Assembly: GCA_964529175.1 (NCBI GenBank)
Contig: CAZGVO010000002.1
Location: 268,665 to 332,664, forward strand
From: an uncultured Bifidobacterium sp.
GTDB lineage: Bacteria > Bacteroidota > Bacteroidia > UKL13-3
DNA: 64,000 nucleotides
Direction of reading: 5' to 3'
Positions 32,255-61,038 of the stretch are shown here, in pieces. The translations under genes and the position numbers were made by a program. How positions within the stretch are numbered: position 1 is the stretch's first letter; each line of letters starts with the position of its first letter. The notes beneath the pieces are model-generated. The model was not told the origin of the DNA. It saw only the letters and a list, made by a program, of their open reading frames with translations, and did not search any database.

Positions 32255-32282
32255 ATTTTTAGTGGTTAATAATGTGTTTAAT

Positions 32283-32459: not shown

Positions 32460-32466
32460 GTTATAT

Positions 32467-33216: not shown

Positions 33217-33221
33217 AGTCT

Positions 33222-33506
33222 TTATAAGTAAGATTTAAATTCTTCTACCTCACTTGAATGCATCCAAAAAGCAACTTCTTTACCGTTATATTTTTTAATG
33301 GTGACAAGCTTGTTACCTTGTAACATTTTAACCCCTTTGAAAATACCAATAATGAATATGATGTTTATAATAGCAATGAAAACATTACCCATTGAATGCA
33401 CTGTTTCAATATCTTCTCTTTGCACGACTTCGCTCATTCCAAGCAATCCATTAATTTTAACTGAACGATCGTTTACAGTTATTTTTCCGTTTTTAAATGA
33501 CTTCAT
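33222..33506 (-). CDS. hypothetical membrane protein (bacterial PH-domain-like)
   Basis: 94 aa with one transmembrane helix (VFIAIINIIFIIGIF) flanked by beta-rich segments. Confidence 0.35.
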   Translation of the reverse strand: MKSFKNGKITVNDRSVKINGLLGMSEVVQREDIETVHSMGNVFIAIINIIFIIGIFKGVKMLQGNKLVTIKKYNGKEVAFWMHSSEVEEFKSYL

Positions 33507-33541
33507 ATTTTTTATAATTTAGAGCAATTATAAAACATTTT

Positions 33542-33838
33542 TTGAAATTTAAACGAATCCGTTTAAATACTTTCTTTGTTCTTACTCTACTATTGGTTTT
33601 ACAAATGCCAATAAGTAAATTACAAAAAAGTCAGTTGAAAGCTTTGGGTTTAAAAGTGAAAACCATCAGAAAGGAAAAGAATTTAACCTTACAAGAATTG
33701 GCATATTCTATTGGTAAAGACCATCAATCTATATATAGACTTGAATCAGGTGGTGTAAACCCATCGTATCTATACTTACTTGATATATGCAAAGGTTTAG
33801 ATATTCATATTGATACTTTGTTGAAAGATATTGTCTAA
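33542..33838 (+). CDS. XRE-family helix-turn-helix transcriptional regulator
   Basis: Helix-turn-helix KEKNLTLQELAYSIGKDHQSIYRLESG. The likely true start is the Met at about 33608 (MPISKLQKSQLKALG). Confidence 0.7.
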   Translation: MKFKRIRLNTFFVLTLLLVLQMPISKLQKSQLKALGLKVKTIRKEKNLTLQELAYSIGKDHQSIYRLESGGVNPSYLYLLDICKGLDIHIDTLLKDIV

Positions 33839-33882
33839 TTACTTTTCAATTTTCATACCTTTGATTTCTAATTTGATAAGTT

Positions 33883-34197
33883 ATGGAAATTATAAAAACA
33901 TTTGGTGATTGGATTATTGATGAAGGTGGAATAACTTGGACAACACATGGTGATTATTTCATTGAAAAAAGTAGACTATGGGAAACAATAGATGGTAATA
34001 ATGGTGTTTTATTATTTGATTGGTTGATTCATATGGCAGAGAAAAAACAACTAACTTCAGAAAATGTACACGAGTTGAATAATGCTTTCATATATGCACT
34101 AGATTATTTTAAAGAGTTAAAACCTCAAAATATAAATCCTTCACTTGAAGATACATTATTACTTCAAAAGCAGATGTTAAATAATAGGAAAAAATAA
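33883..34197 (+). CDS. hypothetical protein (cargo, downstream of XRE regulator)
   Basis: 104 aa. No recognised motif. Co-directional with the XRE gene. Confidence 0.4.
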   Translation: MEIIKTFGDWIIDEGGITWTTHGDYFIEKSRLWETIDGNNGVLLFDWLIHMAEKKQLTSENVHELNNAFIYALDYFKELKPQNINPSLEDTLLLQKQMLNNRKK

Positions 34198-34208
34198 TAC
34201 GTTTTAAT

Positions 34209-34631
34209 ATGGAAACTATAGTATATCCAATACATTTAGAACAAATACGAAAGATTAAGAAAGGTAGTACTTTATTTAAGGCTTCAGAATTAGAAAATGT
34301 TTCAACATTGATAGATGGGGAGTGGCAAGAAAGCGGTATGTTCTTAATACAAGGTATAGTTCCTGATGAAAACCATTATTTGATTATAGACAGACCTAGT
34401 ACTAACATGTTAAATAATGAAACTTTTTTTGTTGTTTATATGATAACACACAGTCCTCAATATAACAACATTTTGATTCAAAAAGAGTGGGTACAAAATT
34501 TTGACTTACATGTAAATAGTCATGTTACTACAAATACTTTCCTAATCAGAGAACAGGATATTATTATGGATAAACAATATGGTGCTTTTGATTTAGAAAC
34601 ATTTAAAAAACATATCGAAGTAACATATTGA
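34209..34631 (+). CDS. hypothetical protein (cargo)
   Basis: 140 aa. 11-nt gap from the preceding ORF. Ends 20 nt before the right TIR. Confidence 0.4.
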   Translation: METIVYPIHLEQIRKIKKGSTLFKASELENVSTLIDGEWQESGMFLIQGIVPDENHYLIIDRPSTNMLNNETFFVVYMITHSPQYNNILIQKEWVQNFDLHVNSHVTTNTFLIREQDIIMDKQYGAFDLETFKKHIEVTY

Positions 34632-34651
34632 TAATTAACATGTTATAAATC

Positions 34652-34685
34652 TACTTTCCTATATTCCGATAGTCAGTTAAGTTAA
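34652..34685. repeat. right terminal inverted repeat
   Basis: tactttcctatattccgatagtcagttaagttaa, the reverse complement of the left TIR (24/24, then 8/10 with one indel). Confidence 0.85.
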
Positions 34686-34774
34686 TTAATAAACATGGCC
34701 TAATGTTTGAAATAACTTGCTTCGGTGCATGTATTTTAAACATTCACTTGAATTAAGCACCTAAATAGCTACTT

Positions 34775-35350
34775 TTGCCCAACTTTAAAAACAAGCAATA
34801 TTGCTTTATGTTAAAAAAAATACTTTTTATTCTTTGTGTATTGGCTTTTGCTAACATAGCTCAAGCTCAAAGAAATAACGATAAACCTTATGTGGCCGAT
34901 ACCACCCATTGGAGTAAGCCTAAAAAAGCAACTTATTTGGCTTTGGTGCCTGGCCTTGGTCAAATTTATAATAAAAAATATTGGAAACTTCCTATTGTTT
35001 ATGGTGGTTTTGCGGCTTTAATTTACTCTGTTTCGTTTTACCAAAACGAGTATGATATTGTTCGCCAAGCAGTATTGGATAAAAAGGCAGGAAGACCAAT
35101 TTCTGACCCAACTTTACAACCTTTGGATGATGCAAATTTGGTTTCGCTTCGCGATTTTTACAGAGAAAATCGCGATTTGTCGTGGATTGGAATAGGCGGT
35201 TTATATGCTTTGCAAATTATAGATGCAGCAGTAGATGCGCATTTGCAAGAGTTTGATGTAAGCGAAAACCTAACTTTAAAATGGCATCCTGATTACAGGG
35301 TACAAGCTGGAAGAGCCTTTGTTGGCGCCACTTTAAAGTTAGAATTTTAA
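34775..35350 (+). CDS. DUF5683-like membrane protein
   Basis: 191 aa. PGLGQIYNKKYWK motif and signal peptide. Probable start is the Met at 34811. Confidence 0.5.
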   Translation: MPNFKNKQYCFMLKKILFILCVLAFANIAQAQRNNDKPYVADTTHWSKPKKATYLALVPGLGQIYNKKYWKLPIVYGGFAALIYSVSFYQNEYDIVRQAVLDKKAGRPISDPTLQPLDDANLVSLRDFYRENRDLSWIGIGGLYALQIIDAAVDAHLQEFDVSENLTLKWHPDYRVQAGRAFVGATLKLEF

Positions 35351-35360
35351 AATATAATTA

Positions 35361-37226
35361 TTAGTTTTTTATAAACTTGATAGTATTTCCGCTATCTGTT
35401 TTAATAAAATAAACGCCTGCATTTAGTTCTTCAACGTTTAATACATTGTTTTGATGTGCTTTAACCGTTTCTTCCATTTTGAACTTGCCTAACAAATTAT
35501 AAATTTTTACTTGGTAAGTTTTATTTAAATTAATGCCTTGTATATCAATATTTAGTAGGTTTTGAGCAGGATTTGGATAAACATCAATGTTTTGTATTGC
35601 AGCTAATTCCGTAACCGAAGTACTTCTATCTAACTGAATAATTTTAGTTTCTAACGATGCTAAGTTGATGCCACTTCCTACATTATCATTTATATTTAAA
35701 TATTCAGTTTTGTTATTTAAAATATCTTTCGATTTAAAACTACCATTAGCCCAACTTAAAGTATTTAAACTAGTTATCAAATTATTGGTACTTCTTGTAG
35801 CAGTATTTATCAATACCAAATAACTTTGGTTGTTGTAAGTTCTTATAAATGAAAGAACTGCTGTGTCGGAACATAAAACATTTTGGTATGTTCCAACTGA
35901 TAAAGCTGCTGTAGCATTTCTAGTTTGAATTAGCTTTTTGTAATAACTTAATAATGAATTTGTGTCGGCATTCATAAGTTGTACATTATAGCTTGGGTAG
36001 TTTGAGTTTACCGCATACCAAGGGTTTACAGTGCTAAATCCTGCGGCACTTGAGCTGCTCCACTGCATAGGAGTTCTAATTCTTTCATCTGGTTTGCTGC
36101 CTTTCATCCCAACTTCTTCACCGTAATATACATAAGGCGTTCCTGGTAAAGTTAAATAAATTGAAGCAGCAGTTTTTAGTTTATAAATATCGCCACTCAT
36201 TTCGTCAAACACCCGATTTTGGTCGTGGTTGGTTAAAAAAGTACTGAATTTATTGAATTGTAAATTGGCTGTGGCATAATTAATTTCCGTTCTCAAAGCT
36301 TGCGTATTATTGGTTTTCATTACACTTAAAATATTGCTGGCCAAATCAAATTCAAAGCAATTGTCTAATTTGTTATTGTAATTTTTAACGGTACTTGTGG
36401 CTGTCCAAACTTCGCCAACGGTCATAAAATTAGGATTCAACGATTTGCAGTAAGTGTTAAAATCGGCCCAAAACTGATACGTTTCAGGTTGGTTCATTAA
36501 GTTTCCACCATTTTCAAATAAATACATGGCAGCATCAAGCCTAAAACCATCTACTTTTATGCTGTCAATCCAAAATTTAGCAGCATCAAAAATACTATCT
36601 CTAACAGGTTGGTAATTATAGTTTAAATCGGGCATTTCACTCCAAAATAAAGCATAGTAATTACTGCCATTTTTAGTGTACCATACATCTTGTCCCCATG
36701 GCCCTTTGTAAGTTGGTTTGGTGCTATTCCATCTGTAAAAATCGCGGTAAAAAGGATCGTTAGCTGCCGATTTTACAAACCACGGATGTTGGCTTGATGA
36801 ATGATTAATTACAAAATCAATAATTACTTTAATACCTCTATTATGAGCTTCGGTTATTAAATTTTTAAAATCAGCTAACGAACCATATTGAGGGTTAACT
36901 GCCTTATAATTAGTTACATCGTATCCATGACTGCTTGGCGATGCATTAATAGGCATAAGCCAAATTCCTTTTATGCCTAAATCGGTTTTGGTGTTAGAAT
37001 CACCATCGTTCAAATAATTTAGTTTAGATGTAATACCATTAAAATCGCCAATGCCATCAGCATTGCTATCAAAATAACTGCGTACAAATATTTCGTAAAA
37101 AACAGATTGGTTCCACCAATTAGTAGCAGGTTGCGCCATTATTAAGTTTGGAGCTATTAAACATAAGGTAAATATAAATTTTTGTAAACTTTTTTTCATG
37201 TTACGATAGTAATAAATAAAACCCAA
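35361..37226 (-). CDS. GH13 alpha-amylase family protein with T9SS C-terminal sorting domain
   Basis: 621 aa. GH13 regions (VIIDFVINHSS, GFRLDAAMY). C-terminal about 80 aa (YPNPAQNLLNIDI...GVYFIKTDSGNTIKFIKN) is a type-A T9SS sorting domain. Confidence 0.9.
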   Translation of the reverse strand: MGFIYYYRNMKKSLQKFIFTLCLIAPNLIMAQPATNWWNQSVFYEIFVRSYFDSNADGIGDFNGITSKLNYLNDGDSNTKTDLGIKGIWLMPINASPSSHGYDVTNYKAVNPQYGSLADFKNLITEAHNRGIKVIIDFVINHSSSQHPWFVKSAANDPFYRDFYRWNSTKPTYKGPWGQDVWYTKNGSNYYALFWSEMPDLNYNYQPVRDSIFDAAKFWIDSIKVDGFRLDAAMYLFENGGNLMNQPETYQFWADFNTYCKSLNPNFMTVGEVWTATSTVKNYNNKLDNCFEFDLASNILSVMKTNNTQALRTEINYATANLQFNKFSTFLTNHDQNRVFDEMSGDIYKLKTAASIYLTLPGTPYVYYGEEVGMKGSKPDERIRTPMQWSSSSAAGFSTVNPWYAVNSNYPSYNVQLMNADTNSLLSYYKKLIQTRNATAALSVGTYQNVLCSDTAVLSFIRTYNNQSYLVLINTATRSTNNLITSLNTLSWANGSFKSKDILNNKTEYLNINDNVGSGINLASLETKIIQLDRSTSVTELAAIQNIDVYPNPAQNLLNIDIQGINLNKTYQVKIYNLLGKFKMEETVKAHQNNVLNVEELNAGVYFIKTDSGNTIKFIKN

Positions 37227-47759: not shown

Positions 47760-49055
47760 ATGAAAAAGTTAATACTTTCTACATTAAGCATTGGACTTGC
47801 GTTAAGTTCATTTGCACAACAAAACCTAGGCTTAAAAAACAATGGCCTAATCGACAACTCACCTCGTAAAGTAAGAAGCACTGCTACTTTAGGTAAAGCT
47901 GACAGATCAGAATGGTACAATCCATTAGATATTTTAGCTAACGGTAACTTCAAAACTTACGTTGGTTTTATGATGAACGATTCATTAGCTAAATTTATCG
48001 ATGATCAAGGTGTTGCTAGCCAAGGAAGAACTTTCCAAGCTATTGCACAAATTATCGATCCTAAAGATGATGCTATTGATTTAGGAGCTGATCCAACAAT
48101 TAAAATGAGTAAATTTACTAACTACACAGTAGATTCAATTGCTTTCAGATATTCTTATATCAGAAGAGTAGATAATACTGTTGATGGTTTAGGTAATCCT
48201 GTTCCAGTTGTTGATACTTTATTTGTTTACTACTTTACAGGTACTCAAATAGCTAGAAATCAAACAATTCAAGGTTTAACGTCTAAATTTGGATACGTAG
48301 GTTATGATTTTGCAACTAGACGCCCTAAAAACTACACTACTATCGATACTGTTCTGTTAACTGCTGATTATTCAACTGGAAAACCAAGTGCTACAGGTTG
48401 GTTATCAGCGGAAATTGGATTAGCTGCTCCTGCTGGATTATCAGTTAATGCAACTGGTGGAACTAATGCAAATAATTTAATTGCTTATGCTTTAGTATTC
48501 AAAAACGGTACTACTTACGATGATACTTATGTATTTGAAGACAGAAGAGATTCATCAGTTGTTCCTACTGATACTAAATGGGTAAATTACTTCTCGTACC
48601 GTTATGGTGCTAACGAAGGAACTGCTTTAACTAGCACATTCTTTAACAGTTCATTATTTGTTCCTCAACGTTTTTCTTACGCTGTAACTAACGGTTGGAC
48701 AGGTTGGTACCCTGGTCAAGGTTTTACTAACGACTTATATTTAGATGCAAGCGTTAAATTATCTTCAACTAATATCAGTGTTAAAGAAGTTCCTAATTCG
48801 TTTACTTTAGGAAATGCTTATCCTAACCCTGCTAGCAACGATGTTACTATTGCTTTTGATTTAAAATCAAGAAAAGATGTAAAAATTAGCTTGGTTAATT
48901 TATTAGGTCAAGAAGTTGTTAGCATTGCTAACGATAACTTCTCAGCAGGAAATAACGAAGTTAAATTTAATGTAAGTAATTTATCAGCCGGTGTATATTT
49001 CTACACAATGACAGTTGATGGTGTTAGCCAATCACAAAAAATTATGATTAAATAA
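47760..49055 (+). CDS. secreted protein with T9SS C-terminal sorting domain
   Basis: 431 aa with a signal peptide. C-terminus (YPNPASNDVTIAFDL...GVYFYTMTVDGVSQSQKIMIK) is a type-A T9SS sorting domain. Confidence 0.7.
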   Translation: MKKLILSTLSIGLALSSFAQQNLGLKNNGLIDNSPRKVRSTATLGKADRSEWYNPLDILANGNFKTYVGFMMNDSLAKFIDDQGVASQGRTFQAIAQIIDPKDDAIDLGADPTIKMSKFTNYTVDSIAFRYSYIRRVDNTVDGLGNPVPVVDTLFVYYFTGTQIARNQTIQGLTSKFGYVGYDFATRRPKNYTTIDTVLLTADYSTGKPSATGWLSAEIGLAAPAGLSVNATGGTNANNLIAYALVFKNGTTYDDTYVFEDRRDSSVVPTDTKWVNYFSYRYGANEGTALTSTFFNSSLFVPQRFSYAVTNGWTGWYPGQGFTNDLYLDASVKLSSTNISVKEVPNSFTLGNAYPNPASNDVTIAFDLKSRKDVKISLVNLLGQEVVSIANDNFSAGNNEVKFNVSNLSAGVYFYTMTVDGVSQSQKIMIK

Positions 49056-49080
49056 TTTATTTATTTAATTAAAACATAAT

Positions 49081-49117
49081 AAAAGCCTCATCAGTTTACT
49101 GTTGAGGCTTTTTTGTT
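49081..49117 (+). terminator. rho-independent terminator
   Basis: aaagcctca / tgaggcttt stem followed by TTTTT. Confidence 0.7.
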
Positions 49118-49216
49118 GCTGTAAGTTATTATTAATATATTCAAAAATCATGTTTATATATATTTTGATAATGATTTGGCAAGTATTATTTTGCAACCAG
49201 AAATAAAAATCGACAA

Positions 49217-49933
49217 ATGGGAAGAGTATTTGAAAAACGTAAACATAAAATGTTTGCTCGTTATGCCAAAATGAGTAGAACTTTTACCAAAATAGGTAAG
49301 GAAATAGCCATTGCAATTAAAGCTGGAAATGGAAATGGAGATCCTGATAGTAATTCTCGTTTAAGAGCAGTAGTTGCTAATGCAAAAGCTATTAATATGC
49401 CAAAAGCAAATATTGACGCAGCTATATCGCGCGCTACCAGCAAACAAGATAAAGATTTTGAAGAGGTAGTATATGAAGGAAAAGGCCCTCATAATATTCC
49501 TATGATTATAGAAACAGCAACTGATAATCCAACAAGAACAGTCGCTAATCTGAGAAGCTATTTTAATAAAAAAGGTGGGCAATTAATGGTTAGTGGTTCT
49601 TTAGATTTTCTTTTTGAACGAAAAGGAATTTTTAGAATAAAAAACGAAGGAATAAATTTAGAAGATTTTGAACTTGAAATGATTGATGCGGGTTTAGAAG
49701 AAATTGAAGATGATGGAGAAGGCCATTTAATACTTTCAGTTGGTTTTACTGATTTTGGTAAAATGCAACATGAATTGGAAGAACGCAAAATTGAAATAGT
49801 AAATGCTGAATTACAGCGTATTCCAACACAACCAATGGAGTTAACTGAAGAGCAAGAAGCAGAGTTCAATGTTTTGCTCGATATAATTGAAGAAGATGAT
49901 GATGTGGTAAAAGTGTATACCACGTTAATGTAG
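49217..49933 (+). CDS. yebC: YebC/PmpR family DNA-binding transcriptional regulator
   Basis: 238 aa. Conserved YebC N-terminus (GRVFEKRKHKMFARYAKMSRTFTKIGKEIAIA). Confidence 0.9.
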   Translation: MGRVFEKRKHKMFARYAKMSRTFTKIGKEIAIAIKAGNGNGDPDSNSRLRAVVANAKAINMPKANIDAAISRATSKQDKDFEEVVYEGKGPHNIPMIIETATDNPTRTVANLRSYFNKKGGQLMVSGSLDFLFERKGIFRIKNEGINLEDFELEMIDAGLEEIEDDGEGHLILSVGFTDFGKMQHELEERKIEIVNAELQRIPTQPMELTEEQEAEFNVLLDIIEEDDDVVKVYTTLM

Positions 49934-49954
49934 AAAAAATTACTTAATTGCTTA

Positions 49955-49990
49955 AAAGCCACCAACTAATACTTGGTGGCTTTTTTGTTT
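49955..49990 (+). terminator. rho-independent terminator
   Basis: aaaagccaccaa / ttggtggctttt stem followed by a T-run. Confidence 0.7.
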
Positions 49991-50069
49991 TATCATTAAA
50001 TTAATTTTTATTTTTAAATAAGTTTAAATTTTAAATCATTATTTATTTTATTCGTAAAAATATTAAATA

Positions 50070-52208
50070 ATGAAAAATAACTTTTTTTCGCTGGTTTTAC
50101 TACTAGTAATCTCTTGTACTCCTGCTTACTTTCCAGAACATGGCAGAAAATTCACTTCTTACAATAATCCATATGGTAGTGTGAGCGAAGCTGATGTGGC
50201 CGAGGCGTTAAAATTGAAAAAAAAATACCCTGAAAATACAGAATATATAGCCGATTATATAGTGAATTCTTATACGTTTGATTATTATGCTGATAATTTA
50301 AAAAAAGGTAATCCAATTGGAGTTAAAGAAGAAACCTTTGAGAAGTATACATCCATTGCCGATTTTGTTAAGCTTTCAAAACTTGAATATTTTAATGATC
50401 AAATAAATTTCGATGGTTTTTTTGTAAAGTATGGATCAAGAAAAGATGAAAATTTTATAAAACGAGATTATGTAATAAGTAATTTTCAAAGTCGTGGTAT
50501 ATTTTTTTCGGATGCACGTCAGGCTCAAATTGCCTCAGAATTAAGCGTAGCTGGTACCAATTTGCGTTTAAATTTTTCACGTTATTATAAAGATGCTAAA
50601 TATTTAACTAGTGCTTATTTCTTAGAAGGTTTTCCTCAAAAAGAAAAGGTTATAACATTTGCAATTCCTAATTATTTAAAAGTTGAAATTATTGAAAAGA
50701 ATTTTGAGGGATTTAATATTGAAAAATCAGATAAAAAATATGTGATCAAGGATGATCAAATGAAAAGCAGAATTACAGAATCTAAAAGTAAAGAAAAGCT
50801 TACTTACGTTACCTATATTCTTAAGGATGCTAAAGGTATTAAAACAGAAAAACTGATGCCTGGTTATTCTCATAATTTACCACATATTGTAATTTTGGTA
50901 AAATCAATAGATTTAGATATGGCAAAGGCGTACAGTAAACCTATTCCAAAAGAGCTTAAAGAAGCTGCGGCTGAAGCAGATAAAGGTAAATCAAAAGTAA
51001 AAGCTAAAACTGTTGTAAAAAAGGCGGAGTTAAAGCCAGTTCCACTAATTGCAAATACAAATGATTTATATGCTCATTATTCTCAAATAGTAAGTAAACT
51101 TGAAAATGATTCAACTGTATTAATTGAAAAGGTAAAAAGCATTATTAAAGATAAAACAACTGATTTAGATAAAATTGAAGCAATTTTTTATTGGGTGCAA
51201 GATAATATTAGATATGTAGCCTATGAGGACGGAATAGCGGCTTTTAAACCTGATGCTTGTCAAAATGTTTTTAACAATCGTTATGGCGATTGTAAAGGAA
51301 TGGCTAACCTATTAAAGTCAATGATAGGTACTTTAGGTTACGATGCGAGATTAACATGGGTGGGTACAAAACACTTGAATTATGATTATAATGTTCCTAG
51401 CATTGTAGTTGATAATCACATGATTTGTACTGTAATTTTAAATGGTAAAAAATACTACTTAGATGGAACAGAAAGTTTTATTGGGATTGATGATTATGCT
51501 GATAGAATTCAAGGCAGACCAGTAATGGTTCAAAATGGTTTAGATTATACCATTGATACTATACCTGATTTGTCTTCGGATAGAAATTTAAGATTAAGAA
51601 AAGCTAACTTTACTTTAGCCAATAATACTTTTGAAGGCAAAATGTATGAAACCATAAAAGGTGAAAATAAAACAGATATTTTAAGAAGTTTTCATAACTC
51701 ACCATTAGATAAAAAAGATAAAGTATTGTTAGATGTGATTGATCCAAACGATATTGATATTGATGTAAAAAATGTTGTAGCTTCTGATTTAAATAATAGA
51801 AGAATTGACATTGACATGAACTATGATTTAAAAGTAAGTAATCATATGGTTACAAATGGAAATACTATTATGTTTAAGCCTGATTATAATAGAGAGTTTT
51901 CAGCTAGTAAAGCCGATAGTGCTCGTTTCTTCGACATTCAGTTTGATCACAAATTAAATTATGCTTACGATTTGAGTTTTGCTATTCCTACTGGTTATAA
52001 ACTGGTATCAACTCCTCAAAATTTGACTATTGATAATCCTGAATTTAGTTTAGTAATGAAATACGAAAACTTAGGAAATACCATCCGTTACACCAAATCA
52101 ATTATTTTGAAGAAAGGTAAAATTAGTAAAAATAATTTTAAAGAATGGAATCAAATGATTGATAAAATGAGAGATAATTACAATCAATACATAGTATTAA
52201 GCAAATAA
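50070..52208 (+). CDS. lipoprotein with transglutaminase-like cysteine-protease core (DUF3857/Transglut_core/DUF3858-type architecture), module copy 1 gene A
   Basis: 712 aa with lipobox LVISCT. Canonical TGase Cys motif RYGDCKGMANLL at about 51276-51306, with downstream His/Asp candidates. K/A/E-rich low-complexity linker. Paralog of 55196-57478. Confidence 0.75.
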   Translation: MKNNFFSLVLLLVISCTPAYFPEHGRKFTSYNNPYGSVSEADVAEALKLKKKYPENTEYIADYIVNSYTFDYYADNLKKGNPIGVKEETFEKYTSIADFVKLSKLEYFNDQINFDGFFVKYGSRKDENFIKRDYVISNFQSRGIFFSDARQAQIASELSVAGTNLRLNFSRYYKDAKYLTSAYFLEGFPQKEKVITFAIPNYLKVEIIEKNFEGFNIEKSDKKYVIKDDQMKSRITESKSKEKLTYVTYILKDAKGIKTEKLMPGYSHNLPHIVILVKSIDLDMAKAYSKPIPKELKEAAAEADKGKSKVKAKTVVKKAELKPVPLIANTNDLYAHYSQIVSKLENDSTVLIEKVKSIIKDKTTDLDKIEAIFYWVQDNIRYVAYEDGIAAFKPDACQNVFNNRYGDCKGMANLLKSMIGTLGYDARLTWVGTKHLNYDYNVPSIVVDNHMICTVILNGKKYYLDGTESFIGIDDYADRIQGRPVMVQNGLDYTIDTIPDLSSDRNLRLRKANFTLANNTFEGKMYETIKGENKTDILRSFHNSPLDKKDKVLLDVIDPNDIDIDVKNVVASDLNNRRIDIDMNYDLKVSNHMVTNGNTIMFKPDYNREFSASKADSARFFDIQFDHKLNYAYDLSFAIPTGYKLVSTPQNLTIDNPEFSLVMKYENLGNTIRYTKSIILKKGKISKNNFKEWNQMIDKMRDNYNQYIVLSK

Positions 52209-52219
52209 ATTTTTGAGAA

Positions 52220-54394
52220 ATGAAAAGAAGAATTTTATATAAAATAAATGTTATAATAGCATTGTTATTTCTTTTAAATAATAATGTTTGGAGCCAAAAA
52301 GAAAAAGATTTAAAAAAATTGCATGAGCTTCAAAAAGAAGATACAGAACCTGCTTTTAGCGCTTTATCAGAGCCAGAAAAGTATAAAAAAGAATCGATGG
52401 TAATGCTGGCCGAAAAACTAAAAGTGGTGCAGGCTAAAATAAAAACGATTAATAATGGATATGCTTATTTTGATCAATACTTTGTTTACTCAAGAACAAG
52501 AATAAAACTGAATGATTTAAATGCGATTGAAGCATACAGCGATTTTGAGTTTGAAGATGGTAATGAGTTTGAAGTGAAAATTGTAAAGCCTGACGGCAAA
52601 AAAATTGATGTTGATTTAAAAGATGCAGTAGATGCTGACAACCTGAAAACGAGCAATAAATTTTTCAATAAGTTTTTAGTTAATAAGAGAAAGAAAATTG
52701 CCATTAAAAACTTAGAAATTGGGGATATTATCGATTACAGTTCACTTTATCGCTCAAGTAGCTATTTGTACCGCAGTATATATTTTACCAATATTACAGG
52801 AATGCCCATTGTTTACTTAAAAAATGAATTTAAGGTAAATAAAAATAATACAGTAGTTGCCTTCAAAAATTTTAACGGAGCCAAAACCCTTATCCAAAAA
52901 GCAGATGGTAAATTAGTTAATTATTCTTTTGAATCTAATTTAATTGATAAAAGAAAAGAAGAGATTATGAGTGATGATTATCAAAGCGATCCTTATTATA
53001 AATTAGATATTTATTTTGATGTACTAAGGTATTATCCATTAAAAGAAAAACCTGCAAAAAATGCTATTAAAAGCTCTCTTACCGAAGAAGAAATAAAAAA
53101 ACACGTGTACAATGTATTTCGTTACAGTAAGTTGAATAGCAATAATTATTTGGAGTTTATTAAATCAGAAAATGTTTATGGTCTTTCTGATGAGGATTAC
53201 ATAAAAAAGTACTATTACTTTTGTCGTGAAAATTTATATCGATGCAGTATAGCATTTAACTTTGAGCAGAAAAAATACGGTGTTGAAATGTTAAATCAAT
53301 TCATTTCACATTTAGAAAAGCGAGATATTAAATATGAGTTATTGGCAATGGTTTCTAAAGAAGATGGAACGATTAAGGATTTAATTAATACAGAAGATTT
53401 TTCTTATGGAATAAGGTTTACAACTGATGGTAATGAGCATTTTCTTACTATGTTTAATGCAAATAGTCAACTTGATGATATAAGCGAAGAATTTGATAAT
53501 ACAGAGGCTTATGCATTCTCAAATTATAGAGATGGTGTTTCTAAGATGGAAATGAATGTAATCAATATGCCTAAAGCAAATCATAAGGATAATATCTATA
53601 CCATTAATATTGATGGCAATTTTAACACTAATGACAGTTTGGTATTAAATGTGTTAACCGAAGCGACTGGTTTTCAGCGTAGCGATTCAAGATTCAATTT
53701 AATTAATGCCAGAGAATACTTGAAACTTTACAATAAAGAGCTTGAAAGAAAGAAAGCAATTACGAAAAACAAAAAGCTTTATTATTTCACTAATTTGAAT
53801 TATTACGGTGCTAATCAAGCTTTACTTGATAAAGAAGAAGAAAGAATACTAAAAGATCATTATGATAAACTTGAAAAGTACAAAAGAGAAAACCTTGAGA
53901 ATGATGCACGCAATGAATATTATGTTCTTAGATATGAAAAATTTGAACCAATAAACGATGGAAGAAGTATTAAAAATACCACCACTAGCTGGAAAGAGAA
54001 ATTTATAATTGGAAATACTTTGATACCTGCTGGTAAATCGTTTGTTTTTGAGATAGGTAAAGTATTGGGTAGATTATCAATGATTTATGATAATGATGAT
54101 AGGGTAGAAAGAACAAAACCTTTTTTTATAGATTACAATAAAACTTTCACCATGAACGTAAAAATTAAAATACCTGATGGAAAAACTGTTAGTGGATTAG
54201 AAAGCTTAATTGTAAATGAAACTAACAAAGTTGGGTCAATTATTTCTACTGCAAAAATTGAAAATGGTTATATTGTTTGGAGTTTTACCAAAAAATTAAA
54301 TAGCTACAAATTTGAAGCAGTTGACTGGAGCAATTATATAAAAATTACCGACTTAGGTATGAATTTGAACACATCTAAAATCATTATTAATTAA
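52220..54394 (+). CDS. DUF3857-like secreted protein with degenerate transglutaminase-like core, module copy 1 gene B
   Basis: 724 aa with a signal peptide. YYYFCRENLYRC...FISHLEKRDIKYELLAMV loosely fits a TGase-core Cys region. Paralog of 57482-59647. Confidence 0.6.
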   Translation: MKRRILYKINVIIALLFLLNNNVWSQKEKDLKKLHELQKEDTEPAFSALSEPEKYKKESMVMLAEKLKVVQAKIKTINNGYAYFDQYFVYSRTRIKLNDLNAIEAYSDFEFEDGNEFEVKIVKPDGKKIDVDLKDAVDADNLKTSNKFFNKFLVNKRKKIAIKNLEIGDIIDYSSLYRSSSYLYRSIYFTNITGMPIVYLKNEFKVNKNNTVVAFKNFNGAKTLIQKADGKLVNYSFESNLIDKRKEEIMSDDYQSDPYYKLDIYFDVLRYYPLKEKPAKNAIKSSLTEEEIKKHVYNVFRYSKLNSNNYLEFIKSENVYGLSDEDYIKKYYYFCRENLYRCSIAFNFEQKKYGVEMLNQFISHLEKRDIKYELLAMVSKEDGTIKDLINTEDFSYGIRFTTDGNEHFLTMFNANSQLDDISEEFDNTEAYAFSNYRDGVSKMEMNVINMPKANHKDNIYTINIDGNFNTNDSLVLNVLTEATGFQRSDSRFNLINAREYLKLYNKELERKKAITKNKKLYYFTNLNYYGANQALLDKEEERILKDHYDKLEKYKRENLENDARNEYYVLRYEKFEPINDGRSIKNTTTSWKEKFIIGNTLIPAGKSFVFEIGKVLGRLSMIYDNDDRVERTKPFFIDYNKTFTMNVKIKIPDGKTVSGLESLIVNETNKVGSIISTAKIENGYIVWSFTKKLNSYKFEAVDWSNYIKITDLGMNLNTSKIIIN

Positions 54395-54400
54395 AGACCA

Positions 54401-55042
54401 ATGAAGAAAATACATATATTTATTTTTGCATTTATTGCAATTTTTACTCAAAAAGGTTTTAGTCAAAGTGGAATTGATTTTTCATTAGTTCCAGTAGATT
54501 ATGTACAAAGAGTTGATTTAGGTGGTGACAATAGAGCTCAACTATACTCTGGTGCGCATTATGGAATCAAACTTGGTTATTTTAAGTGGGAAACCCCATC
54601 TATTATGACTTTTATTTCATTACAATTAACTAATTTTAGTAAAGATTTTTATACCCAAAACTATGATGATGGCAAGTTTAATAATTTTACACAAAGTGCA
54701 ACATCTTATTTAATTAAGATAGGTACTATGAATGTTTTTAATGAAATTGATTATAAGTCTCATATTTATTTAAAACAAGCTTTTCTTATTGCAATGAGAA
54801 GTGACAAGGTTAATCAAACAAATACTAACGCATTAACTAACAATGCAGGTGTTAGTTTGAGGTATGATGATAACAAAGAAGATCCAGTGGGTTTTAGTTT
54901 AGGTTATGAAGCAGGAATGGGTTACCAATATAATGTAAATAAGAAATTAGGAGTTTATGCTGATGCAACCTTAGGTGTTCGCAGTTTTGAAGTAATGTTT
55001 TTTTTAAATACTAATTTAGGTGTTAGGTACCGATTAAGATAA
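54401..55042 (+). CDS. small outer-membrane beta-barrel-like protein, module copy 1 gene C
   Basis: 213 aa with a signal peptide. Alternating hydrophobic beta-strand pattern and C-terminal GVRYRLR. Paralog of 59654-60241. Confidence 0.55.
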   Translation: MKKIHIFIFAFIAIFTQKGFSQSGIDFSLVPVDYVQRVDLGGDNRAQLYSGAHYGIKLGYFKWETPSIMTFISLQLTNFSKDFYTQNYDDGKFNNFTQSATSYLIKIGTMNVFNEIDYKSHIYLKQAFLIAMRSDKVNQTNTNALTNNAGVSLRYDDNKEDPVGFSLGYEAGMGYQYNVNKKLGVYADATLGVRSFEVMFFLNTNLGVRYRLR

Positions 55043-55058
55043 AATATAGTAAAATAAG

Positions 55059-55098
55059 AAAAAACAGTTTGGTTAAGCATTACCAAACTGTTTTTTTA
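55059..55098 (+). terminator. rho-independent terminator separating the two module copies
   Basis: aaacagtttggt / accaaactgttt stem followed by TTTTTT. Confidence 0.7.
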
Positions 55099-55195
55099 TG
55101 CTTTTTACTTTTATGATATTCAAAAGTTCTTCCTATTATTTAATTAAAAGTAAAAATAGGAGACTAAATTTTAGTTAATTCGTACAAAAAATCAA

Positions 55196-57478
55196 TTGAT
55201 GAAAAAAAATTATTTTCTATCCATTTTGTTTTTATTTTTTATAACCAGTTGTGTTAGAAGAAGTTATACTCTAGTGCCTCATGGTCAGTTAATTAATAAA
55301 TACAGTAGCTCTATTGGTATTGTGAGCCCAAATGATGTAGAAGAGGGTATTAAACTTAAAAGCATTTACCCAGAAAATACTGATTATGTAGCCGATTTTA
55401 ATGTTAGTGTTTTTAAATTTGGCTATTTTGCTGATAATGCAAAAAATGGTAACCCTATTTATGTAAATGAAGATTGTTTTGAAAAGTACATAGCAACTGA
55501 TGATTTTGTTAAGTTTAGGAAACTAGAGTTTTTTAATGATCAAGTTGGTTTAAATGCATTTAACGTAAAGCTTGGAACTAATGAAAATGTAAAAATGAAA
55601 AAATCAGACTACTTCGTTACAAATTTTCAAAGTGGGGGCATTTTTTATTCTGATGTAAAACAAGCCTATTATCTGACTGATTTGGGCGTGGTTGGAACAA
55701 ATTTACGAATTAATTATACCAAGATTTATAAAGACGCTAAGTATTTAACCAGTGTTTATTTTTTAGATGAGTTTCCTCAAAAAGAAAGAGTAATCTCGTT
55801 TGAGGTTCCTTCGTATTTAAATATTGAAATTATTGAAAAAAACTTTGAAGGATATTCAATTGAAAAAAATAATCAAAAATATATTGTGGAAGATGAACAA
55901 TTTAAGCAATATGTAAGTAAAGAAAAAGCAGCTGATAAAACCAGATTTATTACCTATACTATCAGGAATACAAAAGCTTTAAAGCCCGAAGATAATCAGC
56001 CAGGTTACTCTTACAATGTACCTAATTTGGTAATTTTGGTAAAATCATTTGATGAAAATATCGCAAAAAATTACAACAAGACTCCTCCAAAAGAAGATAA
56101 AATTATATTGGATGAAAGAGCTAAAGCCGAAAAAGCAGCCAAAACTTTGCGAGACGCAAAAAATGCAAAGCTAGCACAAGAAGTTAGTGACCAAAAAGCA
56201 AAAGCGGCCAAAGAAAAAAAGGCTACTCCTACTAAAAATCAACCAATAAAAAGTAACAAATTAGCGGATAAAAAAGATTCAAAAAAGCCTGAAGTAAAAC
56301 ATCCAGTTGCTTTAATCGGAAACTTAAACGATTTGTATGCGCATTATTCTCAAATAGTAAGTAAAGTTGATAATGACAGTACTGTATTTTTAGAAAAACT
56401 AAAAAGTATTGTAGCAACTAAAAAAACGGATATTGATATTATTGAAGCAGTATTTTATTGGGTTCAAGATAATATTCGTTATGTAGCTTTTGAAGATGGA
56501 ATTGCTGCCTTTAAACCCGAAAATTGCCAGAATGTATATACTCAAAGATATGGCGATTGTAAGGGTATGGCTAATTTGCTCAAATGCATGCTTACTAGCT
56601 TGGGTTACGATGCAAGGTTAACCTGGATTGGAACCAAACATTTAAATTATAATTACGCTATACCAAGTATAATGGTAGATAATCATATGATTTGTACTGT
56701 ATTGTTAAACGGTAAAAAATATTATTTAGATGCTACAGAAAGTTTTATAGGGATTGACGATTATGCCGATAGAATACAAGGCAGACAAGCCATGGTGCAA
56801 GACGGGGCTAAATATTTTATTGATACCATACCAAATTTTTCGGCCGATAGAAATTTGTATTTGCGCAAAGGTGTTTTTTCGTTGAACGATAATATTTTTG
56901 ATGGCTCCGTAAATGAAGTTATTAAGGGCGAGAACAAAACCAATATTTTGCGAGCTTACGCCAATACACGTTTAGATAAAAGAAATACTGTTGTTCAAGA
57001 TTTTTTAGATCCTGATGATGTAGATATTGATGTGAGCAATATTTCAACATCCGATTTATCGGTAAGAAAAGGAAATGTACTGTTGTCGTACGATTTAGTA
57101 GTTAACAACCATTTGATTACTGTAGATGATATGATGATGTTGAAACCTGACTATAAGCGCGAGTTTTATAATGCAAAAGCCGATAGTGGCCGCTATTTTG
57201 ACTTACAGTTTGACCATAAACTCAATTATGTAAACGAGTATAAATTTGAAGTTCCCGAAGGATACAATGTAATGTATTTTCCCGAAAATTTGATTATTAA
57301 TAATAAGGAGTTTTTAATAGAACTAACTTACGAATTGAGAGGGAATTATATAGTTTATAAAAAGAGTATTTTGTTGAAAAATGGCCGTATTACTAAAGCT
57401 AATTTTAAGCAATGGAATAATGCCATTGATAAGCTAAGAAATAACTACAATCAATACATTAAATTAAAAAGAAAATAA
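55196..57478 (+). CDS. lipoprotein with transglutaminase-like core, module copy 2 gene A
   Basis: 760 aa with lipobox FFITSCV. RYGDCKGMANLLKCM TGase motif. Longer K/A/E linker. Collinear with 50070-52208. Confidence 0.75.
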   Translation: MMKKNYFLSILFLFFITSCVRRSYTLVPHGQLINKYSSSIGIVSPNDVEEGIKLKSIYPENTDYVADFNVSVFKFGYFADNAKNGNPIYVNEDCFEKYIATDDFVKFRKLEFFNDQVGLNAFNVKLGTNENVKMKKSDYFVTNFQSGGIFYSDVKQAYYLTDLGVVGTNLRINYTKIYKDAKYLTSVYFLDEFPQKERVISFEVPSYLNIEIIEKNFEGYSIEKNNQKYIVEDEQFKQYVSKEKAADKTRFITYTIRNTKALKPEDNQPGYSYNVPNLVILVKSFDENIAKNYNKTPPKEDKIILDERAKAEKAAKTLRDAKNAKLAQEVSDQKAKAAKEKKATPTKNQPIKSNKLADKKDSKKPEVKHPVALIGNLNDLYAHYSQIVSKVDNDSTVFLEKLKSIVATKKTDIDIIEAVFYWVQDNIRYVAFEDGIAAFKPENCQNVYTQRYGDCKGMANLLKCMLTSLGYDARLTWIGTKHLNYNYAIPSIMVDNHMICTVLLNGKKYYLDATESFIGIDDYADRIQGRQAMVQDGAKYFIDTIPNFSADRNLYLRKGVFSLNDNIFDGSVNEVIKGENKTNILRAYANTRLDKRNTVVQDFLDPDDVDIDVSNISTSDLSVRKGNVLLSYDLVVNNHLITVDDMMMLKPDYKREFYNAKADSGRYFDLQFDHKLNYVNEYKFEVPEGYNVMYFPENLIINNKEFLIELTYELRGNYIVYKKSILLKNGRITKANFKQWNNAIDKLRNNYNQYIKLKRK

Positions 57479-57481
57479 GGC

Positions 57482-59647
57482 ATGAAAAATCGATATAATC
57501 AATTATTAAAACGTGGTTTTCTTTTATTTTTTGTGCTATTGCATGGTTTATTTGTGTTTTCACAAAGTGCTAAAAATAAGAATAAACTTAAGAAAAGTGA
57601 GTTTGATAAATTACATAAACTTCAAAAAGAAGATACCGAATCAGAGTTTAGTAACAATAAAATTCCTGAGCAATATAAGTTCGAGTCAATGGTAGTTTTG
57701 GCTGAAAAAACTAAAATTTTTGAAGATAAATTTACCTTTTACAATTATCATAGAATTAGAATAAAACTGAACGATTTAAGCGCTTTAGAAAATTACAGTG
57801 AGTATAAATTTTACGAAAATGATATTCTTGAAATAAAAATTATAAAGCAAAATAAAACTACCATTACGCTTGATTTAGCTGAAGCTGTAGATGCTGAAAA
57901 TGTTAAAACAAGTAATATTAAGTTTAATAAACTAATTGATTATGAGTCAAAACTGAAAAAAATAGCTATCGGTGGCTTAGAAATTGGTGATATAATTGAT
58001 ATTTCAAGCAGGAGTGTATTGGGTAATTTCTCGTATAGAAATAATTATTTTGTTCAACTTGCTGGTATGCCAATAGTATATTTAAAAAATGAATTTATAG
58101 TAGGCAATTATTTTCAAGTAACCTATAAATCGTTTAATGGTGCTAAGGAAATTACAAAAGAGAATAATGGAAATAAAATAGAGTTAACCTATGAACAAAA
58201 GATGATTGATAAGCGTTTGAACGAATTATTAGATCAAAGTTTATTAACCGACCCTTACTATTTTATTGAAATAAGAAAACTTTCAAAAAGACAATACAAA
58301 AAATTCAAAATCAGTAAAGAGGAAATAGCCAATAAAATAACGCCAGAAGAAATTAAGAGAAGAATGGTGGAGTTGTTTAAGCCTTATGAACCAACAGATT
58401 ATTATTACGAATTTTATAAATCGGAAGATATTTATAAATTAAGTGATGAAGACTTTGTAAAACACTATTTTTATTTTTGTAGAGATATATACTTTTTGCC
58501 AGAATTAGCCTTTAATGTTAATGTTCAATCATTTGATTATCAGGTTATAAAAAAGTTTATCACACACTTAAAGAAGAGAAATATTCCGTTCGAGGTTTTA
58601 TTGTTAAGCTCCAAGTATGATAAAAAAGATATAAATGAAGTTGTAAATTTTGATGATTTTAAATTTGGACTTAGGTATAAAATTAACAATCAATATCATT
58701 ACATCACAACATTTTATGTTAATAGCGAAATTGATGAAATAGGGGAGCACTTTGAAGGAACTGTGGCTTTTGTATTTAATAAAGTTAGAAAAAAGCGTAA
58801 AATTAATTATTACTTAGACTCTATTCCAACATTAGATGCTAGTAAAAATATTTATGCTATTGAAATTGAAGCAAAATTCAACAAAAATTTAGATTCTTTA
58901 AATGTATTGATGAATTCAACAGTAACGGGTATCGAAAAAAATAAATTCAACTATAATTTGATTAATAGCGAAGCTTACTTTAATAAATTTATTGAATCGT
59001 GGACTAACAATAAGTTTTATAAATATACTTACTTTTTGGCCAATAATATTTATTTAGATGCTAATAAAGAATTTTTCAACTCTGAAGAAGAGAGACTTAA
59101 AAAAAATGTATTTACCAAATTAGAAAAGCAAAAATTAGAAAACATAAAAAATAATACTAACTCAGAGTACGATGTACTAAAATACCATTATTTTAAATCA
59201 ATAAATGATGGGCGAAATTTGGATACTTCCCAACTATTATGGCAGGAGTATTTTACAGTTGGTAATACCTTGCAAAAAGCTGGAGCAGCAAGTTATATTT
59301 TTGAAATAGGTAGCTTATTAGGCAAGTTATCGGTGGTAAGTAATAATGAAAATAGAAATGTTAAAACCAAGCCTTTTTTTATTAACTATAGCCGAAACTT
59401 AAGTATGAAAATAGTTGTAAAAATTCCTAATGGTAAAAAAGTACAAGGTTTAGAAAATCTAAATGTTAATTTTAAAAATAAAATTGGCGCTATTACCTCA
59501 AAAGCTAATATTGAAAATGGAAATTTAGTTTGGACATTTACCAAAACTCAAAATGCTTTCAAATACAATAAAACCGATTGGAATGAGTATTTAATACTAA
59601 CCGATTTGGCTTCACAATTAAATAACGCTAAACTTATTTTCAACTAA
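57482..59647 (+). CDS. DUF3857-like protein with degenerate TGase-like core, module copy 2 gene B
   Basis: 721 aa. Collinear with 52220-54394 (LHKLQKEDTE..., IKLNDL..., GMPIVYLKNEF..., YFYFCRDIYF...). Confidence 0.6.
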   Translation: MKNRYNQLLKRGFLLFFVLLHGLFVFSQSAKNKNKLKKSEFDKLHKLQKEDTESEFSNNKIPEQYKFESMVVLAEKTKIFEDKFTFYNYHRIRIKLNDLSALENYSEYKFYENDILEIKIIKQNKTTITLDLAEAVDAENVKTSNIKFNKLIDYESKLKKIAIGGLEIGDIIDISSRSVLGNFSYRNNYFVQLAGMPIVYLKNEFIVGNYFQVTYKSFNGAKEITKENNGNKIELTYEQKMIDKRLNELLDQSLLTDPYYFIEIRKLSKRQYKKFKISKEEIANKITPEEIKRRMVELFKPYEPTDYYYEFYKSEDIYKLSDEDFVKHYFYFCRDIYFLPELAFNVNVQSFDYQVIKKFITHLKKRNIPFEVLLLSSKYDKKDINEVVNFDDFKFGLRYKINNQYHYITTFYVNSEIDEIGEHFEGTVAFVFNKVRKKRKINYYLDSIPTLDASKNIYAIEIEAKFNKNLDSLNVLMNSTVTGIEKNKFNYNLINSEAYFNKFIESWTNNKFYKYTYFLANNIYLDANKEFFNSEEERLKKNVFTKLEKQKLENIKNNTNSEYDVLKYHYFKSINDGRNLDTSQLLWQEYFTVGNTLQKAGAASYIFEIGSLLGKLSVVSNNENRNVKTKPFFINYSRNLSMKIVVKIPNGKKVQGLENLNVNFKNKIGAITSKANIENGNLVWTFTKTQNAFKYNKTDWNEYLILTDLASQLNNAKLIFN

Positions 59648-59653
59648 TTCAAC

Positions 59654-60241
59654 ATGAAAAAACTTTTTTCTCTAATTTTTATATTTTTCTGTACCATGGC
59701 TATTAAAGCTCAGTCAGGTATTGATATTGCAGTTATCCCGGTGCATTTTTCACCTCAAATTATAGATAATTCTAACAACATAAATATGTACGGTTTAAAA
59801 ATTGGCTATTTTAAATGGATAAATGATGACCAAATTAGAAGTGTTTATTTACAAGCACATGGCAATAGTAAATCATTTTCCGATCAAGTTTATAATAGTA
59901 ACTTTGATCAATCTTCTTATAAATTTTGTGTAAATTATGATTTTACATGGATTCTCGGAGAGATGGATTTAAAATCGAATTTTTATTATAGAGAAAGAAT
60001 ATTTTTAGGGTATGTAGTTAATAATAAAAAATATACTGATACCCAATTATCTTCTTTAAATAAGAACACGAATTATTTTATGGGTGGATATGGTTATGGC
60101 TTTGGTTATGAATATAAAGTAAAGCCTTTTGTAGTAATTTATGTTGATTTGGGTGCCAACGGAGAGTTTAATTTTACTGATTTTTGGAAATTTAGTGATT
60201 TTGCTACAGCACAAGTTGGTTCCAGAATTAGGTTTAATTAA
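59654..60241 (+). CDS. small outer-membrane beta-barrel-like protein, module copy 2 gene C
   Basis: 195 aa with a signal peptide. Shares QSGIDxxxxPV and GxKxGYFKW motifs with 54401-55042. C-terminal RIRFN. Confidence 0.55.
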   Translation: MKKLFSLIFIFFCTMAIKAQSGIDIAVIPVHFSPQIIDNSNNINMYGLKIGYFKWINDDQIRSVYLQAHGNSKSFSDQVYNSNFDQSSYKFCVNYDFTWILGEMDLKSNFYYRERIFLGYVVNNKKYTDTQLSSLNKNTNYFMGGYGYGFGYEYKVKPFVVIYVDLGANGEFNFTDFWKFSDFATAQVGSRIRFN

Positions 60242-60911
60242 CCCCATTTTTCGCCTTTAAAAATGCTTCACCTACTAGTAAATCTTCGGGTGTAGTTATT
60301 TTTATGTTTTTATAATCTCCTGGTATTAAGTTTATTGTATATCCGTTTGATTCTAAAACACTTGCATCATCCGTAAAGTTAATATGGTCTTGCGCAGCAT
60401 AAGCCTCTTTAATTAATTGGGCTTTAAAAGTTTGTGGTGTTTGAATAAGGTAATAATTATCTCTGTTTACGTTTTTATTGCTCAGTAATTCTACTTTTCT
60501 TATCGAATCTTTTAAGCGAACAGCTGCTACTGCATTGCCTTTTTGTGCGGCAGTTTCAAAACTATTTAAAATAATTTCTTTATTAATAAATGGTCTTACT
60601 CCATCGTGTATGGCTACTAAATCATTTTCGTTGCAGTGCAGTAGACCATTTTGAACAGATTCGAAACGAGATGCTCCACCGGCTACTATTTGGTGCTGAA
60701 TGGTGAATTGATGTGTTTGGCATAATTGGTTCCAAAATTCTATTTGGCTTTGAGGTAAAACTAAAATAATATGGTTAACTCCACTATTATAAAATGCTTC
60801 AATGGTATGCATTAAAATAGGCTTTCCAGCTAACAATAAAAATTGTTTAGGTAAATTACTTTCCATACGCGTTCCGTTTCCACCTGCTACTATTAAAGCT
60901 GTTTTGTTCAT
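60234..60911 (-). CDS. ispD: 2-C-methyl-D-erythritol 4-phosphate cytidylyltransferase
   Basis: 225 aa. MNKTALIVAGGNGTRM N-terminus is typical of IspD. 8-nt convergent overlap with the upstream gene end. Confidence 0.9.
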   Translation of the reverse strand: MNKTALIVAGGNGTRMESNLPKQFLLLAGKPILMHTIEAFYNSGVNHIILVLPQSQIEFWNQLCQTHQFTIQHQIVAGGASRFESVQNGLLHCNENDLVAIHDGVRPFINKEIILNSFETAAQKGNAVAAVRLKDSIRKVELLSNKNVNRDNYYLIQTPQTFKAQLIKEAYAAQDHINFTDDASVLESNGYTINLIPGDYKNIKITTPEDLLVGEAFLKAKNGVN

Positions 60912-60960
60912 GTTTTTTGTGTTTTATTTTAGATATAAAAAGTCAAAATTTGGTTTATAA

Positions 60961-60998
60961 AAAAGACCAACAACTAATTGAATAGTGTTGGTCTTTTT
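60961..60998 (-). terminator. rho-independent terminator downstream of sucC
   Basis: aagaccaac / gttggtctt stem flanked by A-runs and T-runs. Confidence 0.65.
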
Positions 60999-61038
60999 AT
61001 GTTTTTTACAAGCATTGCTGCTAGTAGTTTATTAATTA

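Follow-up and report, generated by a model that had tools for sequence, protein, structure and literature searches.

In the window analysed here, a stretch of 64,000 nucleotides of contig CAZGVO010000002.1 (GenBank assembly GCA_964529175.1, positions 268,665 to 332,664), we found two head-to-tail operons that each encode a transglutaminase-fold lipoprotein with an intact Cys-His-Asp triad (A), a secreted full-length paralogue of A that has lost the triad (B), and a small signal-peptide protein predicted to fold as an outer-membrane beta-barrel (C). Our overall picture, to which we give a probability of about one half, is that each operon produces a periplasmic, outer-membrane-tethered heteromeric cysteine hydrolase complex; any particular substrate would be named with much less confidence. 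Two collinear copies of a three-gene set had been described in an initial annotation of this DNA made from the sequence alone, and the open reading frame (ORF) list of the window bore this out, showing six + strand ORFs, all of them intact, with gaps of 3-11 nt between the genes of each set. The first set comprises A1 (50070..52208; 712 amino acids, aa), B1 (52220..54394; 724 aa) and C1 (54401..55042; 213 aa), and the second comprises A2 (55199..57478; 759 aa), B2 (57482..59647; 721 aa, scoring 840 bits with the B profile) and C2 (59654..60241; 195 aa, scoring 227 bits with the C profile). For A2 a TTG at 55196 gives 760 aa and the ATG one codon on, at 55199, gives 759 aa; the ATG is the more likely start, and the database homologues P0008 and P0009 have 759 aa.

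Protein A was confirmed as a transglutaminase-like lipoprotein carrying a Cys motif. Both copies matched the Pfam family Transglut_core (PF01841; 38.9 bits for A1 and 33.7 bits for A2, gathering cut-off 23), as did 40 of 40 members of the A family, and both carry a lipobox (VISC in A1, ITSC in A2) and the motif RYGDCKGMANLL (+ strand; 51279..51314 in A1, where it contains Cys408, and 56546..56581 in A2). The triad C408/H450/D465 is invariant in the 87/87 A proteins aligned from the window and related loci, and about 100 further columns of this alignment are invariant, mostly in the core. DUF3858 was matched by A1 (29.1 bits, cut-off 27), A2 reached only 20.6 bits, below that cut-off, and 15 of the 40 family members matched DUF3857. 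A1 is built of a DUF3857-like domain, the transglutaminase core and DUF3858, and is the predicted catalytic subunit, with A2 as a type II counterpart; judged by profile and triad, A belongs to the transglutaminase-like superfamily. Only a 'long A' subgroup of 700-780 aa has the lipobox, and most A homologues are non-lipoproteins of ~640 aa with an ordinary signal peptide of the Sec/signal peptidase I (SPI) type, which ends ...AQ before Lys. A third N-terminal type is seen among long A proteins (L004, L014 and L015; L numbers denote loci of other genomes), consisting of a hydrophobic signal-anchor-like segment with neither a lipobox nor a Gln cleavage site, and membrane anchoring of A may have been reached by different routes. 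In A2 the N-domain is separated from the catalytic core by an inserted low-complexity stretch of ~45 residues rich in Lys, Ala and Glu (56080-56290, residues ~297-365); A1 has a shorter version of it, and the 640-aa A proteins have none.

The description of B as a degenerate partner of A was found to hold over its full length. BLASTP detected no similarity between B and A, and in Pfam B1 matched DUF3857 only (31.1 bits, cut-off 24.6) and B2 had no match; across the B family, 27 of 40 members matched DUF3857 and 0 of 40 matched Transglut_core. Alignment of A with B by hhalign gave a probability of 95.6% (E 1.3e-8) with first, small alignments and of 98.7% (E 2e-16) with 40-sequence profiles, the latter over 625 collinear columns running from the signal peptide to the C-terminus. 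In the A/B alignment the B equivalent of the Cys motif of A reads KKYG--VEMLNQF, with the Cys deleted, and the His and Asp positions of the triad are neither conserved in B nor Cys/His/Asp-like. Because the triad is lost and no member examined matches Transglut_core, we regard B as a family-wide pseudoenzyme, which by these alignments is related to the transglutaminase-like superfamily in fold and ancestry only. The YFCRE/YFCRD sequence of B, which had been taken as the counterpart of the Cys motif, instead aligns with the FYWVQDN helix of A, ~35 residues upstream of that motif; its Cys is kept in 11 of 73 B proteins, and the Arg after it is invariant. The conserved columns of B lie in the N- and C-terminal beta-domains and not in the core, E166, G168, D169, R336 and W703 being among the conserved residues, and B evolves much faster than A, with an identity between distant members of ~23% for B and ~35% for A.

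The best fold match of the predicted B1 model was PDB 3KD4, over 427 residues, and the collinear three-domain architecture of 3KD4 was found in both A and B, which align with each other end to end. More distant fold matches of B1 included eukaryotic transglutaminases, band 4.2, PNGase and Rad4/XPC, together with LapG, PeiW/PeiP and protein-glutaminase, and the N-domain of B resembles the substrate-binding N-domain of M1 aminopeptidases. Gln26 is present in 72 of 73 B proteins, and the SPI-type signal peptide ends just before it (...VWS before Gln in B1). An exhaustive profile search returned 2129 cluster representatives of the B family, 852 of them at E <= 1e-30; among the matches listed, the best 150 representatives were nearly all 700-760 aa long. 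We also considered a clean subfunctionalisation in which A keeps DUF3858 and B keeps DUF3857, and rejected it on account of the A family members that still match DUF3857.

In order to define the conserved unit, we used a profile scan that covered one genome per species and recovered at least 596 A loci, 80 of which were kept for analysis, and every ORF in the kept loci was scored with hidden Markov models for A, B and C. All 80 kept loci are from Bacteroidota (Flavobacterium, Aequorivita, Winogradskyella, Chitinophagaceae, Saprospiraceae, Cytophagales and Weeksellaceae). Of 87 A genes, which come from Flavobacteriales, Chitinophagales, Cytophagales and Saprospirales, 85 have a B gene downstream in the same orientation, and in 71 cases the two are separated by <=35 nt. 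Two A genes without B (L048 and L066) stand at contig ends, and the nearest B is distant in L065 (1.6 kb downstream) and in L030, where the stretch ends, 9.8 kb downstream, in a B fragment of only 62 aa. Clustering of the neighbouring ORFs at ~84 loci yielded no third conserved partner, with no other gene common to more than 16 loci. Since B adjoins nearly every A and no other neighbour is conserved, the conserved unit is the A-B pair and not A-B-C; the three-gene order emphasised by the initial annotation therefore stands for its first two genes across Bacteroidota, and C is confidently recognised only in close relatives. In L001 (Mangrovimonas sp. TPBH4, 43-8926) a co-oriented A-B pair lies 31 nt downstream of a run of SpoIIM, DUF4129, DUF4350, MoxR-type AAA and DUF58 genes, with a divergent RDD gene upstream of the run. 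In some Flavobacteriaceae this linkage might point to a functional context; a MoxR/DUF58 operon as the general partner of A-B was rejected, as the linkage is not general across the ~84 loci.

The same data bear on whether A and B work together at all. It may be that the two act independently and that their adjacency is a relic of an ancient tandem duplication, with B serving a non-enzymatic role, for example as a binding protein or as an inhibitor that silences A. The concentration of conserved columns in the beta-domains of B is what would be expected of a binding protein, and the faster evolution of B and the apparent exchange of B2 without A2 (below) would fit as well. However, same-strand adjacency in 85 of 87 cases, over several orders and mostly with gaps of <=35 nt, and A and B trees (neighbour-joining) that are congruent are hard to maintain without functional coupling, and an inhibitor role would itself count as coupling; we therefore consider independence of the two proteins unlikely.

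For C, the proposal of a small outer-membrane barrel with a signal peptide was supported by modelling, which gave, with moderate confidence, an 8-stranded barrel for a signal-peptide protein that belongs to no sequence family. The C-terminal aromatic residue ascribed to C is not there: C1 ends in Arg (...RYRLR) and C2 in Asn (...RIRFN). Gln22 is invariant in C, and the SPI-type signal peptide ends just before it. A word-index search for homologues of C returned only 2 near-identical proteins, and its other relatives were drawn from neighbouring loci. The C profile scores only in the window and the close relatives L002 and L006-L013, in all of which C starts 4-19 nt after B. Small signal-peptide proteins with weak similarity to the C profile also start 4-7 nt after B in the distant lipobox-A loci L016, L018 and L028; the one in L018 has 205 aa and ends in Phe, the one in L028 has 212 aa and ends GVRYFLR (GVRYRLR in C1), and the ORF in L016 is cut off by the contig end after 126 aa. 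C was thus seen only alongside lipidated long A proteins, a distribution which suggests that a lipid anchor on A and a C-type barrel are linked traits. A tandem pair of C genes follows a single A-B in L007 (14480-15906) and in L011.

Bacteroidota send many of their lipoproteins to the cell surface, and the export signal known from them is K-(D/E)2 or Q-A-(D/E)2 right after the lipid Cys (PMC5080379). No acidic signal of this kind was found after the lipid Cys of A1 (C-TPAYFP) or A2 (C-VRRSYT), and the lipobox A proteins of relatives are likewise non-acidic at this place; nor did Pfam reveal Por_Secre_tail, the type IX secretion domain, in any of the six proteins. The signal peptides of A (...AQ before Lys), B and C fit the Bacteroidetes Q-rule for cleavage (PMC5837995). 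Proteins named for DUF3857 and DUF3858 are contained in Tannerella outer-membrane vesicle proteomes (PMC10682907), which is compatible with a location in the envelope. Because the export signal is absent, we take A to face the periplasm, and the more likely arrangement, as read from these sequence signals, is a lipoprotein A that faces the periplasm, a soluble periplasmic B and an outer-membrane C. The label 'cell-surface' given to the module in the initial annotation was thus not upheld. A surface-exposed module, in which A and perhaps B would be displayed, with C as their anchor or channel, and would act as an extracellular protease or adhesin in feeding or attachment, would be in keeping with the lipoprotein habits of the phylum, with the rapid evolution of B and C and a B2-C2 segment that resembles a swapped allele, a pattern common in exposed proteins, and with the likeness of the B N-domain to that of M1 aminopeptidases. 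It appears improbable to us, as A1 and A2 lack the acidic signal, a type IX secretion C-terminal domain was not found, most A homologues are Sec/SPI non-lipoproteins with an N-terminal Gln, and the pore of an 8-stranded barrel of the OmpA/OmpW type is too narrow for a 700-aa protein.

In the periplasmic complex that we favour, A would be exported, lipidated on its N-terminal Cys and suspended from the inner face of the outer membrane, where it would present the active Cys-His-Asp site. B, an exported soluble periplasmic protein that keeps the flanking beta-domains, would be bound to A and would serve, without catalysis of its own, as a scaffold, a substrate-recognition subunit or a regulatory subunit, so that A-B would be a former homodimer turned heterodimer; C would dock or organise the complex of lipidated A at the outer membrane. 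The reaction would be hydrolysis of peptide or amide bonds, with A as a protease, amidase or isopeptidase whose substrates would be proteins or peptides that belong to the envelope or are imported. The data show the gene anatomy, the homologies, the missing triad of B, the folds, the constant adjacency of A and B and the purifying selection. We infer the physical association of A with B (and C), the periplasmic orientation, hydrolysis in preference to cross-linking, and the substrate class. Several points weigh against this picture. Any contact between A, B and C would be deduced indirectly, for A and B from the fixed adjacency (85/87) and the congruent trees, and the rules of lipoprotein sorting are known from few Bacteroidota only. 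The model of C has moderate confidence (predicted local distance difference test score 68, from 4 sequences), and C had no Pfam outer-membrane-protein match, OMP_b-brl scoring 10.5 bits (E 0.67) against a cut-off of 28.7. Most A-B pairs do without C and the lipid anchor, so the core mechanism cannot require C. Cross-linking, deamidation and acyl transfer are also within reach of the transglutaminase fold, and searches of the available literature found no biochemical or genetic data on any family member.

The choice of chemistry rests on the relatives. Hydrolases make up most of the transglutaminase-like proteins characterised in bacteria (LapG, PeiW/PeiP, protein-glutaminase), and for this reason hydrolysis is the likeliest reaction of A. 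A could still be a true transglutaminase whose isopeptide bonds would tether envelope proteins or make polymers of them, perhaps C or other outer-membrane proteins, or would join them to peptidoglycan, with B presenting the substrate. The intact triad in a transglutaminase fold, the presence in the same operon of a barrel without a peptidoglycan-binding domain of its own, and the appearance of eukaryotic transglutaminases and of band 4.2, a pseudo-transglutaminase, as distant fold matches all agree with such a role; however, the bacterial hydrolases are among the fold matches as well, C is absent from most A-B loci, and no conserved partner gene for a substrate was found, and we hold cross-linking to be quite doubtful.

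The two copies have a longer history than their arrangement suggests. By BLASTP, A1 and A2 are 54% identical over their full length, B1 and B2 42%, and C1 and C2 28% over ~150 aa (E 6e-15); the earlier estimate of roughly half identical residues was thus right for A, generous for B and wrong for C. In the trees, A1/B1 group with copy 1 of the sister genome L002 (GCA_027484685.1) and with the single copies of L006, L007, L010 and L012; copy 2 of L002 and the lone copy of L008 join A2/B2. The identity of A2 is 66% with the A of L008 and 59% with A1, and that of B2 is 53% with the B of L008 and 43% with B1. The closest single-copy genome is L006, with 86-87% identity in A and 92% in ispD, and a single A-B-C set lies between its yebC and ispD, the position that the two sets occupy in the window. 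As A2/B2 join a copy that stands alone in another genome, the copies represent two old paralogous types; the great age proposed for the duplication agrees with the divergence and the trees, which do not allow a simple in-place tandem event, and a recent in-place duplication was rejected on the same trees. Either an ancient duplication gave rise to the two types and differential loss came after it, or the second type was acquired. Each is preceded by a promoter region of its own, and copy 1 is closed by a separate terminator, which implies two specificities. An independent tandem duplication of A-B was observed in L018 (4941-14917), where the two pairs group together and a C-like gene comes after the second pair but not after the first. 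We also noted that contig JBGSBN010000022.1 (L006/L009) is labelled 'Candidatus Methylacidiphilales' (Verrucomicrobiota); it is syntenic with the window and has a Por_Secre_tail gene, and on this sequence evidence the label or binning is probably wrong and the contig is from Bacteroidota.

Comparison of the window with L002 showed a DNA identity of ~80-95% over the flanks, A1, B1, C1 and most of A2, which falls abruptly to 57-71% at the A2/B2 junction (window 57480-60241, L002 11284-13428) and is back at 87-99% in ispD; L002 has no C2. Synonymous divergence from L002 is 1.9 for B2 and 0.5-0.86 for the neighbouring genes, except sucC (0.20). The drop in identity and the synonymous divergence of B2 argue that one lineage received a replacement B2(-C2) segment by recombination, and that faster evolution alone is not the cause, and B2-C2 looks like a cassette exchanged independently of A2. 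We tentatively suggest a wider scheme, in which A-B would be a phylum-wide obligate heterodimer with an unrecognised envelope function (for example outer-membrane protein processing, quality control or covalent tethering), and the fast-evolving B, with C where present, would be an exchangeable specificity cassette, which would explain the B2-C2 swap independent of A2. The ratio of nonsynonymous to synonymous substitution (dN/dS) is 0.04-0.17 for A1, B1, C1, A2 and B2, indicating that the genes are maintained by purifying selection, and pseudogenisation was rejected on this ground. Decay of the second copy or of the whole region as duplicated DNA, to which the low guanine-cytosine (GC) content of the module (26-30%, flanks 32-34%) and the absence of C2 from L002 might point, is very hard to reconcile with six intact ORFs, these dN/dS values in both copies and the intact triad of A2.

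The surroundings of the module are housekeeping genes: upstream lie ispG, a type IX secretion cargo gene (47760-49055, whose homologue in L002 carries Por_Secre_tail) and yebC, and downstream lie a convergent ispD and then sucC. A terminator-like hairpin after yebC (49954..49984, +; 12-bp stem then a T-run) forms the upstream boundary of operon 1. The terminator reported between the copies was found at 55058..55097 (+), as an intrinsic-terminator-like hairpin with a 16-bp stem and a T-run. No terminator-like hairpin was detected between C2 and ispD, whose 3' ends overlap by 8 nt (60234-60241). Both A genes are preceded by a similar AT-rich element (50010-50069 and 55160-55198), TAAATTTTA...ATTCGTA(A/C)AAAAAT, which ends ~10 nt before the start codon and may be a shared promoter or 5'-untranslated-region element; an Rfam scan of 49000-61000 gave a single sub-threshold chance match and no riboswitch or leader. 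The low GC content given above was measured over 50000-60000 of the window; a second low-GC stretch (27-30%) lies at 30000-36000, and most of the remaining window has ~31-38%.

In the databases, NCBIfam held no named family for these proteins and no match to C, PADLOC anti-phage defence models had no match at E <= 0.01 to any of the six proteins, and searches of solved structures by sequence with A1, B1, both family profiles and the A1 core gave nothing significant, so that 3KD4 was reached by fold comparison only. The family had been called uncharacterised, and in agreement with this, full-text literature searches found no functional study of DUF3857, DUF3858 or 3KD4-type proteins, only incidental mentions. 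What was already known is a set of catalogued domains (Transglut_core, DUF3857 and DUF3858) and one structure, 3KD4 (BDI_1141 of Parabacteroides distasonis, a 'putative protease'), a structural-genomics template for the Pfam families DUF3857 and DUF3858. What might have passed for a locus of two similar DUF proteins is here given a specific, testable description, as an enzyme/pseudoenzyme pair present in hundreds of Bacteroidota genomes, among them those of many species of Flavobacterium, a genus in which some are genetically tractable; in one lineage a lipid-anchored form of the pair is coupled to a small outer-membrane barrel. If the heterodimer and its envelope role are real, the pair would be a new conserved component of the Bacteroidota cell envelope and, for bacteria, a clear-cut case of a pseudoenzyme as partner; if A is one more periplasmic peptidase, the finding would be an ordinary one.

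Compared with known systems, the proteins are closest to 3KD4, with which they share an N-terminal beta-sandwich, a transglutaminase-like core and a C-terminal domain. 3KD4 is a single protein of unknown function, whereas the architecture here is divided between two paralogues, one active and one inactive, whose genes form a fixed pair; a long helix in B (residues ~533-566) and the Lys/Ala/Glu-rich linker of A2 are additional elements. LapG and the pseudomurein endoisopeptidases PeiW/PeiP are also periplasmic or envelope proteins with a Cys-His-Asp triad in a transglutaminase/papain-like core, but they are small and single-domain, act on known substrates (the LapA adhesin and pseudomurein, respectively), and have neither DUF3857/DUF3858 flanks nor a pseudoenzyme partner, so that the resemblance is a distant one of core fold only. 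The coexistence of an active enzyme and a dead paralogue of the same fold has a possible analogy in eukaryotic transglutaminases with band 4.2 and in PNGase with Rad4/XPC; these sets, however, are cytosolic or nuclear, are not operon-encoded, and form no dedicated heterodimer between the paralogues. In comparison with OmpW, the N-domain of OmpA/OprF, NspA and PagL, C lacks a sequence-family match, a C-terminal aromatic residue and a periplasmic OmpA-like domain, and unlike barrels of the OmpW/OmpA type it is limited to a narrow lineage and fixed downstream of B. Overall, the locus presents a 3KD4-type putative cysteine hydrolase in the form of an enzyme-pseudoenzyme operon, which here is lipidated, accompanied by a predicted barrel and present in two old types.

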